NCBI GenBank assembly: GCA_002748665.1
Contig: PDTB01000031.1
Coordinates: forward strand, 890 to 64,889
Length of the DNA: 64,000 nucleotides
DNA from: Dethiosulfovibrio peptidovorans
GTDB taxonomy: Bacteria > Synergistota > Synergistia > Synergistales > Dethiosulfovibrionaceae
Direction of reading: 5' to 3'
In this document: positions 50,707-56,212 of the stretch, in pieces
Numbering within the stretch: the first letter of the stretch is position 1
Layout of the letters: each line of letters opens with the position of its first letter
Notes under the pieces: generated by a model
What the model was told of the DNA's origin: nothing
Database searches by the model: none
Seen by the model: only the letters and a program-made list of their open reading frames with translations
Translations under genes and position numbers: made by a program

Positions 50707-51870
50707 ATGAACAGACGGGATGGTGGGGCGATCCTCTGTTCTCAGGATTTGGATGATTTAGTGACTCTTCAGGTTTGGCGCGGGAGCGGTGCTCCTCGTC
50801 TTGGTATTTTCAACAAGGCGAAAGAGAAACTGAAGCCCATCCGTTTTTCCTGGCTTGAGGATTCATCCAGAATTCTTAAGATGCAGAATGGTCGAGGGCA
50901 GTCAGCTGAGTATCGCATGGACGTCATTGACGATGCCGTTAGGGATCTGGTCGCTCAACTTTCTCGTGAGCTGCAGTTTCGTACCCTCTGTCTTAGGGCC
51001 ACGGTCTTACTTCAGGATCTGGCGATCGATCCGAAGGTTATCATGAATAAAAAGGATTTTGCCTTGTTGCCCGAGACAAAACGACGTTCTCTGTGGCTTA
51101 CCGACATCTCCGCTGGCAAGGAGATGGGAGCCTTTTTGCCCTGTTTTTCGATCTCTGACGAGGAGCAGGAGCTTTTTCTCAGAAACGGCAACGAGCGGTA
51201 TATCGATCTTCCCAAAGGGGGCGATTTTCGGGATATCCGGCGTACTGGTATTGTCTCACGACTCGTGTCGATGGTGCCGGTTCGCTGGTATATGCCCTTT
51301 CAAGTGGCTGCAATTGGCTCTATACTGGGTTTTTCTCTGGCGGGCAAGGACGGTATCGATTTTTCCGACGCCCTTTGGGGAGGTGTTACCGAAGGGCGTC
51401 TCGTTCGGAAAGCTGATGACTTAGAGGGGCAAGCTAAAACCCAGGCAGCCTGTTTGGCCTACTCGCTGGTCTCTCTGGTTCGTCATTGGCCGTATGTTCG
51501 GGACATGGATTATAAAGAACATTACGATTCGGACAACGTTCTGAAGGGAGAGGGCTACAGCAGAAAGCGGCGTTTCGATATTCCGGCATCCCAGATAGGC
51601 GAGTTGAGCTACGTGGTGACTGTCTATGAAGGTGCTGAAGACTCTGTAGCCTTTAGGTGTCGGGGGAATGGGCGTACAGTGCTTCACGACGGGGAGATGG
51701 TTTTTAAGATTTCCAAGGATGCTTATGCACGAGCGTTGGTTGCTGATGCATGTAATAGCTCCCTCGATGAGTCGTACTCGGTGATTAGTCTGATTCGGGC
51801 GTGGAGAACCTGGAAATGGTGTCTTCGAATTCGAGAGGTTACGCAACCGGCTCTGATGAGTCATCGTTGA
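50707..51870 (+). CDS. Hypothetical protein, 387 aa, no recognisable domain
   Basis: AAGGAGG sits 9 nt upstream. Long ORF with normal composition, but no motif I can assign. Confidence 0.6.
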   Translation: MNRRDGGAILCSQDLDDLVTLQVWRGSGAPRLGIFNKAKEKLKPIRFSWLEDSSRILKMQNGRGQSAEYRMDVIDDAVRDLVAQLSRELQFRTLCLRATVLLQDLAIDPKVIMNKKDFALLPETKRRSLWLTDISAGKEMGAFLPCFSISDEEQELFLRNGNERYIDLPKGGDFRDIRRTGIVSRLVSMVPVRWYMPFQVAAIGSILGFSLAGKDGIDFSDALWGGVTEGRLVRKADDLEGQAKTQAACLAYSLVSLVRHWPYVRDMDYKEHYDSDNVLKGEGYSRKRRFDIPASQIGELSYVVTVYEGAEDSVAFRCRGNGRTVLHDGEMVFKISKDAYARALVADACNSSLDESYSVISLIRAWRTWKWCLRIREVTQPALMSHR

Positions 51871-51886
51871 TCTAACCGATATCTGT

Positions 51887-51924
51887 AAAGCAGGGGAGCT
51901 CGCTGAAGCGAACTCCCCTGCTTT
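51887..51924. terminator. Hairpin shared by the convergent 50707 gene and the nrd operon (12-bp stem AAAGCAGGGGAG/CTCCCCTGCTTT)
   Basis: Read directly. It begins 4 nt beyond the mini-ORF stop on the minus strand. Confidence 0.55.
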
Positions 51925-51927
51925 CAA

Positions 51928-52068
51928 CTAAACGTTCTTATCGTTGTGCCGAAGAACTTTGTCAAATGTTGTTCTGTCTTTGAACTCCTCTTTTTTTCCC
52001 TTGTTCCACTGGGATACCGGCGAGAGAAAACCGACCACTCGAGAGTATACCTCACATTTCGTTCCCAT
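51928..52068 (-). CDS. Free-standing NrdD-type glycyl-radical domain peptide (46 aa): MGTKCEVYSRVVGFLSPVSQWNKGKKEEFKDRTTFDKVLRHNDKNV
   Basis: Hand-translated, ATG 52068 to TAG 51928, absent from the ORF track (under 60 aa). It matches the canonical C-terminal NrdD segment ..EVYSR(V/I)xG(Y)...WNxGKxxEFxDR. It starts 25 nt after the nrdG stop with an AAGGA upstream. Confidence 0.75.
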   Translation of the reverse strand: MGTKCEVYSRVVGFLSPVSQWNKGKKEEFKDRTTFDKVLRHNDKNV

Positions 52069-52093
52069 GTCCGTCACATCCTTTCGTGTGTCT

Positions 52094-52780
52094 CTATATC
52101 CTGCATATCACCTGTCCAACGTAGGGACGGATAGCAGCGGCGTAGGTCTCCAGTTCTTCCTTTGTGCATCGGCGGGTTTTCTGATACGAGGGATCCAGGA
52201 CGGTCCCTACCGGTCGGAAGTACTGAAGATAGTGTATCTTAGCTCCGGAGACCAACCGCCCGATCCCCTCGGCTGATTGAACATCGTGAAGTCCCGGGAC
52301 GAAGGTGGTTCGAAATTCGTATTCGGGGGCTCTGTTCATGATAAGGTGGATGCTCTGTTTCACCTGCTCCTCGTATCCTGAGACGCCCGCTACGGATGGG
52401 AGTTCATTCAGGGGAGCTTTCACGTCCATAGCCACGTAGTCTACCAAAGATCTGTCGAAGATAGCCTCAAGCCGATCAGGAAAGCTTCCGTTGGTGTCCA
52501 ACTTGATGAGAAGCCCCATATCCCTGATGAGAGCCAGAAACTGAGGAAGGTCTTTGTGCATGGTTGGTTCTCCTCCTGAGACCACGACGCCATCGATGAC
52601 TTTGCGCCTTTTTTTGAGAAAGCTCAAGACCATCTCCTGATCCAGAGGTTCTCCTTGGTCGAGAAGGCCGCCGTTATGACACCAGGGGCAGGCAAATGTG
52701 CACCCCCTGGTGAAGACCATTGAAGCGATTTGCCCTGGATAGTCGATCAGGGTGGTCTTTCGGAGCCCTCCCAGGATCAC
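52094..52780 (-). CDS. nrdG: Anaerobic ribonucleoside-triphosphate reductase activating protein (radical SAM)
   Basis: SLIDYPG-type N-terminus (TLIDYPGQ), CTFACPWCHN cluster motif, VVSGGEPT. GTG start overlaps the nrdD stop (GTGA). Confidence 0.9.
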   Translation of the reverse strand: MILGGLRKTTLIDYPGQIASMVFTRGCTFACPWCHNGGLLDQGEPLDQEMVLSFLKKRRKVIDGVVVSGGEPTMHKDLPQFLALIRDMGLLIKLDTNGSFPDRLEAIFDRSLVDYVAMDVKAPLNELPSVAGVSGYEEQVKQSIHLIMNRAPEYEFRTTFVPGLHDVQSAEGIGRLVSGAKIHYLQYFRPVGTVLDPSYQKTRRCTKEELETYAAAIRPYVGQVICRI

Positions 52781-54837
52781 GAGAGAGCCACTTCCTCCTG
52801 GGGAGTCGCAGAGACCTTGACCTCATCGTCGGCTTGGGACTCGGCTGCGCAGATGGGGCAATAGTGGTGTTCTCCCGACAGATAGCCATGAATAGGACAG
52901 ATACTGAAGGTCGGCGTGATGGTGAAATAGGGTATCCGATAGTTCTCGGCAATTCGGCGGACGAGCTTTTTCGTGCTGGCTCCGTTGGGAAGACGCTCAC
53001 CTAAGAAGCCGTGAAAAACCGTTCCACCAGTATACACCGTCTGGAGACCCTCCTGAAGATCCAGAGCGTCGAAGATGTCATCGGTAGCCGTTACCGGAAG
53101 CTGAGAAGAGTTGGTGTAGTAGGGATCGGCCCCTTGGGAGACTGAATCCTGATTTGCGCACATAATTCGGTCGCCAAAGAGGTCCTTGTCGGCTTTGGCG
53201 AAACGGTAGGTAACTCCCTCTGCGGGTGTAGCCTCTAAGTTGTAGAGAGAACCGCTTTCCTCCTGATAGTCGGCCATCCGGTTTTTCATGGCTTCCATTA
53301 CCTTTTGGGAAAAGGCGATGGCTCGTGAGGACGTCAGGTCTTCTCCCAAAAAGTTGAGCATGGCCTCATTCATCCCGTTGAGACCGATGGTGTTGAAATG
53401 GTTGTTCCAGTATCTCCCCGAATCGTCCTTTACAGCTCTGAGATAGAACTTGGAATACGGGTAGAGATTGGCGTCGGTGAGTTTTTCCAGGATTTTTCTC
53501 TTGATGCTCAGGCTTTCTTGGGCCGAGTCCATGAGGTCGAAGGTCCGCTGGACAAACTCGTCTTCGTCTTTAGCCAGAAAACCGATTCGGGCCATGTTCA
53601 GGGTCACCACTCCGATGGAGCCCGTCATGGGGTTGGAACCGAAAAGAGCACCGCCCCTCTTTCGGAGTTCTCTGTTGTCCAGCCGAAGCCGGCAGCACAT
53701 GGAGCGGGCATCGTCGGGATCCATGTCCGAGTTGATGAAGTTGGAGAAGTAGGGTATGCCGTATTTGGCCGTCATCTCCCAAAGAGGTTCCAGGGTGGTG
53801 TTTTCCCAGTCGAAATCGCTGGTCACGTTGTAGGTCGGGATGGGAAAAGTAAAGACCTTCCCTCGAGCGTCGCCCTCGATCATGACCTCGGCGAAGGCCC
53901 TGTTGATCATGTCCATCTCAGTCTGAAATTCACCGAAGGTCTTATCTATGAATTGGCCACCAATCACAGCAGGCCAGCCCCGGAAGGAGTGAGGTGGCGT
54001 TAAATCCATGGTGATGTTGGTAAAGGGTGTTTGAAAGCCCACCCGAGTCGGAACATTTAAGTTGAACACGAATTCCTGGATGGCTTGCCGAACCTCTGGG
54101 TAGGACAGGCTGTCAAAGTGGACAAAGGGAGCCAGGTAGGTGTCGAAGTTGGAAAAGGCCTGAGCTCCTGCTGCCTCGCCCTGGAGGGTATAGAAGAAGT
54201 TGACGATCTGCCCCAGGGCACTGCGAAAGTGTTTGGGCGGACGACTCCCGATCTTGGTACTAACTCCGGTGAATCCACTGAGAAGAAGGTCCTGGAGATC
54301 CCATCCGCAGCAGTATACCGACAGGTTACTCAGGTCGTGAATGTGGAAGTCACCGGACATATGGTGTTCCCGGATGGACGGGGGATATATCTCGCTTAAC
54401 CAGTATTGGGCCGTGATTTCCGATGCGATGTAGTTGTTCAGTCCCTGAAGGGAGTAGCTCATGTTACTGTTCTCATTGACCTTCCAGTCCAGTTTGTTCA
54501 GGTATTGGCCGACCATCTCCACGGCACCGCCCAGAAGCTGTCGGGTGTCCCGAAGCCTGGCGTGTTGTTGACGATAGAGAATATAGGCTTTGGCGATGTC
54601 GGCGTAGCCCTTTTCGATAAGGATTTTTTCCACCAGATCCTGGACTTGTTCGACCGAGGGAGAACCATCCCGGCTGAAGAAGATTCCCAAGTATGACTCG
54701 GCCTGACGGGTCACGGCCTCTCCAATCTGATGGTCATGGATATCAACAGCAGCTGCGGCTTTCATGACCGCCTTGGTGATCCGATCAGCTTCAAAAGGGA
54801 CCTCCCTGCCGTCTCGTTTTCGAATGTGCCTGACCAT
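52777..54837 (-). CDS. nrdD: Anaerobic (class III) ribonucleoside-triphosphate reductase core with ATP-cone and zinc ribbon, lacking the C-terminal glycyl-radical loop
   Basis: ATP-cone (IRKRDGREVPFEADRITKAV), class III core (LYNLEATPAEG, YTGGTVFHGFLGE) and a Zn ribbon (SICPIHGY...HHYCPIC). The ORF ends 23 aa later with no RxxG[YF]. Confidence 0.9.
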   Translation of the reverse strand: MVRHIRKRDGREVPFEADRITKAVMKAAAAVDIHDHQIGEAVTRQAESYLGIFFSRDGSPSVEQVQDLVEKILIEKGYADIAKAYILYRQQHARLRDTRQLLGGAVEMVGQYLNKLDWKVNENSNMSYSLQGLNNYIASEITAQYWLSEIYPPSIREHHMSGDFHIHDLSNLSVYCCGWDLQDLLLSGFTGVSTKIGSRPPKHFRSALGQIVNFFYTLQGEAAGAQAFSNFDTYLAPFVHFDSLSYPEVRQAIQEFVFNLNVPTRVGFQTPFTNITMDLTPPHSFRGWPAVIGGQFIDKTFGEFQTEMDMINRAFAEVMIEGDARGKVFTFPIPTYNVTSDFDWENTTLEPLWEMTAKYGIPYFSNFINSDMDPDDARSMCCRLRLDNRELRKRGGALFGSNPMTGSIGVVTLNMARIGFLAKDEDEFVQRTFDLMDSAQESLSIKRKILEKLTDANLYPYSKFYLRAVKDDSGRYWNNHFNTIGLNGMNEAMLNFLGEDLTSSRAIAFSQKVMEAMKNRMADYQEESGSLYNLEATPAEGVTYRFAKADKDLFGDRIMCANQDSVSQGADPYYTNSSQLPVTATDDIFDALDLQEGLQTVYTGGTVFHGFLGERLPNGASTKKLVRRIAENYRIPYFTITPTFSICPIHGYLSGEHHYCPICAAESQADDEVKVSATPQEEVALS

Positions 54838-54883
54838 TACGTCACGTCCTTTACAGAGGGTATGTCGATAAAAAATGGAGAAA

Positions 54884-54919
54884 GCGCTATATCAAGCGCA
54901 TCTCCATTTATAGTACACC
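54884..54919. promoter_or_regulatory. Two AT-centred quasi-palindromes upstream of nrdD (GCGCTATATCAAGCGC and CCATTTATAGTACACC), weak NrdR-box-like candidates
   Basis: Centres are 20 bp apart. The central CTATATCAAG resembles the CwAtATaTwG core of NrdR boxes as I recall it. The second box is a poor match. Confidence 0.25.
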
Positions 54920-54958
54920 ATAACAAGGGTGGGGTCCAGGGCAAAATCAAACTTTTTT

Positions 54959-55135
54959 CTAGTTGCCTCCCATAGAGGGGATGATCCAAGCCATGATCAA
55001 AAAACTAATTCCCGCCACGATATCGAGCAGAGCCTTGAAGGCTCGGCCACTCCTGTGCCACTGAATGCCCATACGAATCATGAACAGGCCACACAGCGTG
55101 AGAATGACTGGGGCAACCCATCGGACAAAAATCAT
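54959..55135 (-). CDS. Small 2-TM membrane protein (58 aa): MIFVRWVAPVILTLCGLFMIRMGIQWHRSGRAFKALLDIVAGISFLIMAWIIPSMGGN
   Basis: Hand-translated and below the ORF-track cutoff. The GGGGGA RBS overlaps the stop of the upstream SprA-related gene (9-nt gap). Confidence 0.5.
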   Translation of the reverse strand: MIFVRWVAPVILTLCGLFMIRMGIQWHRSGRAFKALLDIVAGISFLIMAWIIPSMGGN

Positions 55136-55144
55136 AAGTTCCCC

Positions 55145-55954
55145 CTAAGCTGCCAAGGAGAGGGTTTCCTCTCGAAAAGATGGTATGCTCGAATAGGCTT
55201 TTGTCGCTTGGCGCTGAGCCAACTCTTGTCTGGCCTGAACGGCCTTACTGTTTGCCTCTGCCGCTACGGCGAGATCCTTGCCCGAAGGCGAATGAGGCGC
55301 CAGGGCTGCAGATTGTACCCGCTGCATGAGGCGGATGGTTTCCTCAGGTGTTGAGCCATTTGGGACAGAGATAGGTAGCCGACCGGCTACGGCGTACTGC
55401 TGACCGTTAGGGCCCTTGACGTAGTCGTATGTGACTATCCCGGTGAAGGGAGCTCCTGCTCGTTGGTGAGCTGCTTCGTGGGTTTTGACCTCTCGATCAC
55501 GAGCATCCAGACGATCTATAACCTGATCCCGGGCGTTTTTTCGAGAATGCGCCCCCTTGTAAATCTCCTGAAGGTCTTCGTAGGATCGCTCGGCCTTCTT
55601 AACCATCAGACGGCTTGGGACCGATCCGGCGTAGAGCCCCAGATCCTTCATAATATCCTCGGGGGCCGAGATCGATACATCTGCGCCGACGATGTAGCGT
55701 TTTCCGTCGGGACCGATCACGTATTGATATGAGACTGACGAGACGTATCGACCTCCTCGGGCTCGAAGCATCCGTTCCATAGAGCGGATGGTCTCCTCTG
55801 ATTGTTTCAATTTTACGCTGCTCTGCTCGCCTCGAACGGTCCCGTTTTTCAAACTACTTGGGCGATAGTCGCGGCGGAATGCTCTCGTTCGGTCAAAAAA
55901 AGGCGGTTGCGCTGGGATAGCTATACCATTTGCCAGCAAAGGAGTCAGCGTCAT
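55145..55954 (-). CDS. SprA-related family protein / putative metalloprotease with HExxH
   Basis: Two repeats of the YxY..GPDGK.Y..G.... module (SYQYVIGPDGKRYIVGADVSI; TYDYVKGPNGQQYAVAGRLPI) and REVKTHEAAHQ (HEAAH). Start set at MTLTPL after the GAGGTG RBS (the ORF track starts at 56011). Confidence 0.7.
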   Translation of the reverse strand: MTLTPLLANGIAIPAQPPFFDRTRAFRRDYRPSSLKNGTVRGEQSSVKLKQSEETIRSMERMLRARGGRYVSSVSYQYVIGPDGKRYIVGADVSISAPEDIMKDLGLYAGSVPSRLMVKKAERSYEDLQEIYKGAHSRKNARDQVIDRLDARDREVKTHEAAHQRAGAPFTGIVTYDYVKGPNGQQYAVAGRLPISVPNGSTPEETIRLMQRVQSAALAPHSPSGKDLAVAAEANSKAVQARQELAQRQATKAYSSIPSFREETLSLAA

Positions 55955-56212
55955 GGTCGTCACCTCGCATGTTCCCAATTTCTCTTTATTGTAAACTGTC
56001 TTCGAGGTCATGTACAGACGAACTCGATTCTCACATCTGATCGAAGGCTACGAGTGAACTGTTTGAGTTGTCGCTTCTGCCTATTTGTATTACTATGACT
56101 CGTGTTTAGTGGAGAAATAAATGTTCAGAAGAGAATATGTGTGTCGATCTGGCCGATTTGGCGATGATCGGCAACCGCTCTGTCGTTATTGATCTGATAA
56201 GGGGTGTTCTTG

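Follow-up and report, generated by a model that had tools for sequence, protein, structure and literature searches.

Gene content of the nrdD locus

The stretch of DNA analysed here, 64,000 nucleotides of contig PDTB01000031.1 from Dethiosulfovibrio peptidovorans and called the window below, carries on its minus strand a gene for a class III (anaerobic) ribonucleotide reductase (RNR), nrdD, followed by the gene for its radical S-adenosylmethionine (SAM) activase, nrdG, and by an open reading frame (ORF) of 46 codons that is homologous to the C-terminal glycyl-radical loop of NrdD. The positions of these genes and of the elements within and beside them are collected in Table 1.

Table 1. Features of the nrdD-nrdG-peptide locus, with positions in the window.
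Feature	Position	Strand	Basis
nrdD core, class III RNR catalytic chain, 686 aa, ATG start	52777..54837	minus	PF13597 and NF006126 matches
ATP-cone, NrdD residues 4-93	54559..54828	minus	PF03477, E 4e-21
Finger-loop cysteines C381-C382 in SMCCRLR	53692..53697	minus	invariant in 70 and in 118 aligned homologues
Zinc-ribbon ligands C647, H650, C660, C663 (CxxH-x9-CxxC)	52849..52899	minus	invariant columns
Non-conserved 23-aa tail 3' of the zinc ribbon (AAESQ...EVALS)	52780..52848	minus	
nrdG, radical-SAM activase, 228 aa, CTFACPWC cluster motif	52094..52780	minus	TIGR02495 (NrdG2), PF04055
25-nt spacer from nrdG stop to peptide ATG, AGACACACGAAAGGATGTGACGGAC	52069..52093	minus	contains AAGGA Shine-Dalgarno
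Glycyl-radical peptide ORF, 46 aa, homologous to NrdD C-terminal loop	51928..52068	minus	PF13597, T. maritima alignment
Gly13 codon, predicted radical-bearing glycine (SRVVG13F)	52030..52032	minus	aligns to RIVG621Y of T. maritima NrdD; invariant
Strong hairpin directly 3' of the peptide stop, between convergent genes	51883..51927	minus	-36 kcal/mol, z = -7.8

The NrdD chain was matched by PF13597 (NRDD) with an E-value of 1e-180 and 602 bits (cutoff 26.2), by NF006126/PRK08270, the closest NCBIfam model, with 1021.5 bits (cutoff 548) and by TIGR02487 with 509 bits (cutoff 326). Models of class II RNR scored far below their cutoffs and did so through the ATP-cone alone; both the core chain and the small peptide matched class III models. 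The last conserved element of the core was the zinc ribbon, C647-P-I-H650 and, nine residues on, C660-P-I-C663. It is followed by an acidic tail of 23 residues, AAESQADDEVKVSATPQEEVALS, and such core tails vary in length and in sequence between relatives. A regular-expression scan detected neither R-x-x-G-[YFW] nor [ST]R[IVT]xG in NrdD or NrdG, and the sole [ST]R[IVT]xG[YFW] in the six frames of the window was that of the small ORF.

The finger-loop cysteine pair, the zinc ligands and the barrel motifs were all invariant among the aligned homologues, which clearly points to functional constraint on the core chain. In NrdD of Thermotoga maritima an SCCR motif has been discussed for the finger loop, a CxxxHx6CxxC zinc motif separates the Gly loop from the last barrel strand, and the loop after the zinc ribbon dips into the barrel and meets the finger loop. 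C381-C382 of the window's chain correspond to the cysteines of that SCCR motif and are the presumed thiyl-radical site, which would take the radical from the glycine of the peptide.

NrdG was matched by TIGR02495 (NrdG2) with an E-value of 2e-55 and 187 bits (cutoff 131). Its GTG start overlaps the TGA stop of nrdD (52777-52779) in the sequence GTGA, and by this overlap nrdG is predicted to be translationally coupled to nrdD. The public gene calls for this nrdG begin at an internal ATG and give a product of 155 aa (L081, 3508-3975; L082, 606-1073). Such a start would remove the CTFACPWC iron-sulfur motif; it is the 228-aa form from the GTG that agrees with TIGR02495.

The peptide, MGTKCEVYSRVVGFLSPVSQWNKGKKEEFKDRTTFDKVLRHNDKNV, is read from an ATG at 52068 to a stop at 51928, and an AAGGA Shine-Dalgarno sequence sits 10 nt 5' of the ATG. 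A GTG at 52077 could yield an alternative form of 49 aa.

The peptide covers the segment missing from the core

In the Pfam profile search the core was aligned to positions 1-532 of the 562 of PF13597 only, so that positions 533-562 were missing from the 686-aa chain. The peptide was aligned to positions 532-562 of the same profile (E 1.4e-9). The two products were likewise complementary on NF006126, where the core occupied positions 2-658 and the peptide positions 649-682 of 684; on TIGR02487 the peptide occupied positions 550-579 of 581. Aligned to NrdD of T. maritima, the peptide spanned residues 612-646, which include the radical glycine Gly621, and Gly13 is accordingly predicted to be the radical-bearing residue. 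At E-values up to 1 the peptide matched only NRDD in Pfam and NrdD models in NCBIfam; neither PF01228 nor any GrcA model was found. Since profiles, homologues and gene order (see below) all agree, the sequence evidence supports the reading that the small ORF encodes, as a peptide of its own on the far side of nrdG, the glycyl-radical segment that NrdD lacks.

An earlier note, made from the letters of the window, had proposed this layout: a 686-aa NrdD with ATP-cone, class III core and zinc ribbon that stops 23 residues later and lacks a glycyl-radical motif, an nrdG that starts on a GTGA overlap with the nrdD stop, and, 25 nt past the nrdG stop on the same strand, a 46-codon ORF taken to be the missing radical domain. 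The translations, the coordinates, the motif scan and the profile matches bear out each of these points, including the alignment of the small ORF to NrdD C-termini and the complementary coverage that a profile alignment was expected to give. The note had also described a hairpin with a 12-bp stem after the small ORF; the hairpin is there, but its stem is longer, with 17 continuous pairs, a 1-nt bulge and three further pairs.

The split is present in independent assemblies

The exact 46-aa product was found on a Logan assembly of SRR6011892, in a contig 100% identical to the window over 3.5 kb. NCBI assembly GCA_002754915.1 encodes the identical 46-aa product too, on a contig with 23 differences in 1429 bases (98.4% nucleotide identity) and an unchanged layout, and the NrdD of the window is identical to an NCBI protein from a metagenome-assembled genome labelled Dethiosulfovibrio peptidovorans. 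Halothermothrix orenii, whose genome is finished (CP001098.1), encodes in the same order a core of 676 aa, an nrdG product of 231 aa and a peptide of 51 aa. In the assembly collection, 285 indexed blocks contained a peptide of the Aminobacterium colombiense type, and its neighbours and gene order were the same in the contigs that were read. Because independent assemblies and the finished H. orenii genome share the layout, the split is not an artefact of assembly or sequencing, a risk that the earlier note had wanted checked.

Distribution and gene order among relatives

From the species-level genome loci we took the 80 with an NrdD most similar to that of the window (58-85% identity) and classified them by script. 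A locus was counted as split when the radical segment lay in an ORF whose stop codon differs from that of nrdD. By this definition 69 of the 80 loci were split and 11 were fused, the latter from Syntrophomonas, Smithella, Desulfosarcina, one member of Patescibacteria and some archaea. The arrangement is thus far more widespread than the earlier note had supposed.

The order nrdD-nrdG-peptide occurred in nine loci, all from Synergistota or Halanaerobiales. Most split loci (58) had the order nrdD-peptide-nrdG, with carriers that include Patescibacteria, Elusimicrobia, Desulfuromonadales, Spirochaetes, Omnitrophota, Planctomycetota and DPANN-type (small-celled) archaea; two more loci end before nrdG and were assigned to neither order. 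In a neighbour-joining tree of the cores, calculated without support values, the nrdD-nrdG-peptide loci formed one clade, and its sister was a locus from Halanaerobiales that has the other order. The topology suggests that the order of the clade arose once, by rearrangement, after the split had already taken place. The peptide gene after nrdG, as the earlier note had described it, is therefore correct for the window, but it is the minority order, confined to this one Synergistota/Halanaerobiales clade. The fused forms were scattered across the same tree, and this scatter implies several events of fission or fusion.

The fused relatives (Syntrophomonadaceae and several archaeal groups) were 57-64% identical to the query. 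In them the split point corresponds to a short linker between the CxxC of the zinc ribbon and the CEVYSRVVGY segment, which was nine residues long in the fused examples from Syntrophomonas and from locus L039.

A database search with the peptide gave 556 matches, and the 120 that were listed were all 38-81 aa long. They came from Synergistota (Aminobacterium, Jonquetella, Dethiosulfovibrio, Pyramidobacter), Halanaerobiales (Halothermothrix, Halanaerobium, Iocasia, Halocella) and some archaea, and were named either 'hypothetical protein' or, misleadingly, 'anaerobic ribonucleoside-triphosphate reductase'. When core and peptide were concatenated as the query, the top 120 protein clusters were all without the peptide part, that is, loop-less cores, and a search with a fused relative returned fused proteins only. 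As each type of query returned its own kind, the split and the fused state are both well populated. With a profile built from 70 peptides, a search of 1.84 billion cluster representatives yielded 4919 matches (50%-identity representatives, E up to 1e-3), of which the best 150 were all short (48-149 aa). With conservation that spans hundreds of sequences, chance can be excluded as the source of the small ORF. In a large NrdD subfamily that ranges over Synergistota, Halanaerobiales, Elusimicrobia, Desulfuromonadales, Spirochaetes, Patescibacteria and DPANN-type archaea, the two-gene architecture is the state of the majority.

Some members of the family showed additional features. The genome of Iocasia frigidifontis, a cultured member of Halanaerobiales, encodes two different stand-alone radical peptides, P0011 and P0095, at distant loci (GM661_09925 and GM661_00605), which implies either two split systems or one additional copy of the peptide. 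Several NrdD homologues of 850-1120 aa contained inteins and/or homing-endonuclease domains (PF14890, PF14528), both among split cores (P0213, P0214, P0229, P0233) and among fused forms (P0249-P0251, P0265, P0282, P0303, P0328). An additional N-terminal PF22811 domain was found in P0259.

Translation signals, selection and variation of the peptides

Sites of the AGGAGG type were found 5-10 nt from the peptide's own ATG or GTG in most loci outside the AT-rich Patescibacteria-type group. With its own Shine-Dalgarno sequence and start codon, the peptide has the signals of an independently translated gene. The N-termini of the peptides were specific to lineages, for example MSPIQTQRQEC in Patescibacteria-type loci and MSTKCxAKTE in Desulfuromonadales.

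Compared with the window, the nonsynonymous divergence (dN) of the peptides was 0.12-0.49 and the synonymous divergence (dS) was large or saturated (11 of 12 comparisons saturated). In the single pair for which it could be computed dS was 2.45, which gave a dN/dS of 0.084 as the sole value. The amino-acid identity of the peptides was higher than their nucleotide identity. The peptide is under purifying selection.

Thirteen residues were invariant in 70 peptides, namely C5, E6, Y8, S9, R10, V12, G13, P17, N22, G24, K25, E28 and R32. The radical glycine is followed by Y, F or W in the split forms, whereas each of the 11 fused forms has Y at this position. Phe was found in 20 loci and Trp in 19 loci of the Patescibacteria type, both in split peptides only. 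The Phe of the window, which the earlier note had read as a replacement of the usual Tyr, is indeed there, and it is normal for the split group, because Y, F and W all occur in split forms. The occurrence of Phe and Trp hints at a relaxed or altered constraint once the loop is a separate chain. An alignment of cores and free peptides made with MAFFT set the peptides inside the core and was discarded.

Several lineages carry extended peptides. Those of Elusimicrobia (L029, L032, L038, L040, L053, L057, L068, L077) begin with a helix (MTAQERQAVENKISELKKE...) and have C-terminal tails rich in Cys (VGCSCGCDK, GGCSCGCECASDK), and some peptides of Patescibacteria or Planctomycetota (L066, L023, L076) end in GGGGCGGGCGCE or GGGCGSCGCDK. 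Such tails recall the redox-active cysteine tails of class I and class II RNRs, or metal-binding sites. A peptide from Moraniibacteriota (L021, 8089-8391) is 100 aa long and has an N-terminal CxxC...CxxC segment before its CDVYSRVVGF loop, so that this small chain may carry a second module resembling a zinc ribbon. P0361, a protein of 66 aa and the best-scoring representative in the peptide-profile search, had two matched stretches (125.9 bits) and may be a tandem duplication of the radical loop.

Structure prediction

We predicted the structure of the concatenated chains with AlphaFold2 (AF2). With fused homologues in the alignment the mean predicted local distance difference test score (pLDDT) was 82.5, with 74-79 for peptide residues 5-34. 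In this model the peptide formed a short strand followed by a helix, and the native tail, which served as the linker, was disordered. In a Foldseek search the best matches of the model were solved class III RNRs (whole-chain matches only). We regard this as partial support, at the level of a model, for a docked peptide.

Other features of the window

The hairpin directly 3' of the peptide is probably the terminator of the operon, as judged from its fold and position; none of 200 shuffles folded as well. A consensus scan for promoters and terminators gave counts no better than those of shuffles and missed the hairpin, because its U-tract is short (only UUU). On the other side of the hairpin an ORF of 387 aa without a Pfam match at E up to 0.001 (50707-51870, plus strand) is convergent with the operon, and the hairpin, at 51883-51927, could be shared as a bidirectional terminator. 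No intron or other RNA element that might carry nrdG was detected when positions 51000-56000 were scanned with Rfam at E-values up to 1.

Upstream of nrdD, at about 54885-54925 on the minus strand, there is an imperfect palindrome, GCGCTTGATATAGCGC, with GTGTACTATAAATGG nearby, between a TTGATT hexamer and the nrdD start. Both are loosely similar to NrdR boxes, with atypical spacing. Directly upstream of nrdD lies a hydrophobic ORF of 58 aa (54959-55135, minus strand), which was also gene-called on L081, and further upstream a 288-aa SprA-related protein (PF12118; 55145-56011, minus strand) is encoded. Elsewhere in the window, panB (ketopantoate hydroxymethyltransferase, PF02548; 47851-48722, plus strand) is present as two overlapping ORFs of 168 aa (profile positions 6-160 of 259) and 122 aa (163-258 of 259). 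On the independent Logan contig L081 panB is likewise called as two pieces, which could reflect a frameshift, a pseudogene or a true split.

A probable class III reductase in two chains

Taking the profiles, the gene order and the conservation together, we consider it likely that the operon encodes a naturally two-chain class III RNR, with an nrdD core, nrdG and a radical peptide. From the 686-aa core would come the ATP-cone, the zinc ribbon and the catalytic barrel, which holds the finger-loop cysteines; the 46-aa peptide would contribute the loop with the glycyl radical at Gly13. NrdG, with S-adenosylmethionine and its [4Fe-4S] cluster, would abstract a hydrogen from Gly13 of the peptide. 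The peptide would sit non-covalently in the barrel, at the place of the C-terminal loop of a one-chain NrdD, and the radical would move from Gly13 to a finger-loop cysteine (C381/C382), which would start the reduction of the nucleotide. We infer the two-chain assembly, the activation of the free peptide by NrdG and the catalysis from the sequences. The benefit of the split might lie in the cheap replacement of a part that has been cleaved by oxygen, or in easier access for the activase.

Some observations weigh against this reading. When the AF2 alignment contained cores only and no fused homologues, the peptide was left unplaced with a pLDDT below 30. The better model was a forced single chain, and the look for a one-chain nrdD covered the 64-kb window. 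The last point leaves room for the idea that the peptide is a spare part or regulator like GrcA for a full-length NrdD encoded elsewhere, with the truncated core inactive or otherwise employed. Small autonomous glycyl-radical proteins are known solely as spare parts, and the two peptide genes of Iocasia frigidifontis, P0011 and P0095, would also suit such a role. The peptide, however, is always co-operonic with a loop-less core and nrdG, the core retains its invariant catalytic and zinc residues, core and peptide exactly reconstitute the NrdD profile, and the window holds no other radical motif or nrdD. We therefore find a spare-part role improbable. Since the core itself lacks a radical loop, the evidence supports the peptide as an obligate subunit.

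To two further explanations we give very little credence. A decaying nrdD with a C-terminal fragment that persists by chance, or an error of assembly or sequencing, could be suspected because one stop codon or frameshift in the linker would give the same picture in any single genome, and because panB of the same window is also in two pieces. It is contradicted by 69 species-level split loci from many phyla that have lineage-specific N-termini and their own ribosome-binding sites and starts, by a dN far below the large or saturated dS, by the same layout in independent assemblies and a finished genome, and by a whole gene, nrdG, between the pieces in the window's clade. Alternatively, a single polypeptide might still result from recoding, whether by readthrough, by a frameshift or by ribosome hopping, from RNA splicing with nrdG inside an intron, or from protein trans-splicing. 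The nrdD gene of phage T4 contains a self-splicing group I intron, which offers a parallel, some related NrdD cores contain inteins (e.g. P0213 and P0233), and the gap is just 9-30 nt in some nrdD-peptide-nrdG loci. In the window, however, the nrdD stop and the peptide start are 708 nt apart, with an intact and conserved nrdG in this interval, the 23-aa tail and the 4-aa N-terminus of the peptide are too small for the halves of a split intein, and the peptides have Shine-Dalgarno sequences and start codons of their own, so that we hold this route to be most unlikely as well.

Comparison with known systems

One-chain NrdD with NrdG is known from T. maritima (PDB 4COI/4U3E), phage T4 and E. coli (NF006126/PRK08270). 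The window's system shares with it the ATP-cone, the barrel, the finger-loop cysteines, a zinc ribbon of the CxxH...CxxC type as in T. maritima, the adjacent radical-SAM activase and the radical loop (E/D)xYxR(I/V)VG(Y/F). By homology both pieces belong to this family, in the PRK08270 subfamily. The system differs in that the large chain does not run on past the zinc ribbon into a radical loop; this loop is a product of its own, and in this clade nrdG lies between the pieces.

GrcA/YfiD of E. coli and Y06I of phage T4 are likewise small stand-alone proteins with a glycyl-radical loop. The GrcA/YfiD loop is activated by the activase of the parent enzyme and works in trans with a loop-less barrel: a pyruvate formate-lyase (PFL) barrel without its radical domain regained activity with YfiD in trans, activated by PFL activase (PMC8683613). 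According to Andorfer et al., just two PFL spare parts have been validated, and others were speculated to exist. These proteins are homologous to the C-terminus of PFL, not to that of NrdD. GrcA, a protein of 127 aa, serves as a backup for full-length PFL that oxygen has cleaved, whereas the 46-aa peptide of the window would be the sole radical carrier, encoded in the same operon as its core. The earlier note had likened the peptide to GrcA/YfiD as a spare part. The likeness holds for a stand-alone radical protein; the spare-part role does not, as the core never has a loop, and the two proteins are not homologous.

In the class II enzyme NrdJa/NrdJb of Pseudomonas aeruginosa the RNR chain is also divided near its C-terminus into two adjacent genes, and the small piece carries a functionally essential C-terminal module. 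That enzyme depends on adenosylcobalamin and has neither a glycyl radical nor an activase. NrdJb carries a zinc finger and a cysteine tail, whereas the zinc ribbon of the window's enzyme remains on the large chain. The alpha and beta subunits of class I RNR are similar by analogy only, in that the radical is kept on a separate, smaller subunit that docks with the catalytic subunit. The beta subunit, however, is an unrelated ferritin-like metalloprotein from which the radical is transferred over a long distance, whereas the peptide would be the excised active-site loop itself.

No description of a split NrdD was found in the searchable literature (open-access papers and bioRxiv), which agrees with the earlier note, to which no described equivalent for class III RNR was known. 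In reviews on RNR evolution and on glycyl radical enzymes, up to 2026, it is the alpha chain that bears the radical domain, and a split is nowhere mentioned; the only split RNR that we found discussed was NrdJa/NrdJb. A class III RNR in two chains, with the radical loop on a peptide of its own, is thus widespread but apparently undescribed.

Significance

The finding bears on annotation, as loop-less cores are now named complete reductases, and sets of sequences filtered for the radical motif would drop such enzymes from RNR phylogenies. It also concerns the glycyl-radical field, where stand-alone radical domains were known solely as repair parts of PFL and others have been openly wondered about.

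A bolder possibility, which we put forward tentatively and regard as rather doubtful, is that the free peptide is an exchangeable and consumable radical cartridge, charged off the enzyme by NrdG and then plugged into any core. Charging off the enzyme would be far easier than the extraction of a buried loop from a 700-residue barrel, and cleavage by oxygen would cost only a 5-kDa piece that is discarded and replaced. If true, this would be the first constitutive 'spare-part' design among glycyl radical enzymes, and the peptide would offer a natural substrate of minimal size for work on how activase and substrate recognise each other. As part of the same tentative view, the Cys-rich CxCxC tails and N-terminal helices that the peptides of some lineages have gained suggest that the small subunit has turned into a platform for added functions, e.g. 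the delivery of reducing equivalents.

If the biochemistry of the two-chain enzyme holds, the peptide would be the smallest natural glycyl-radical protein. The system would then be a tractable one for the unsolved question of how activases reach a buried glycine, and it would allow a direct test of whether modular radical loops cut the cost of oxygen damage.

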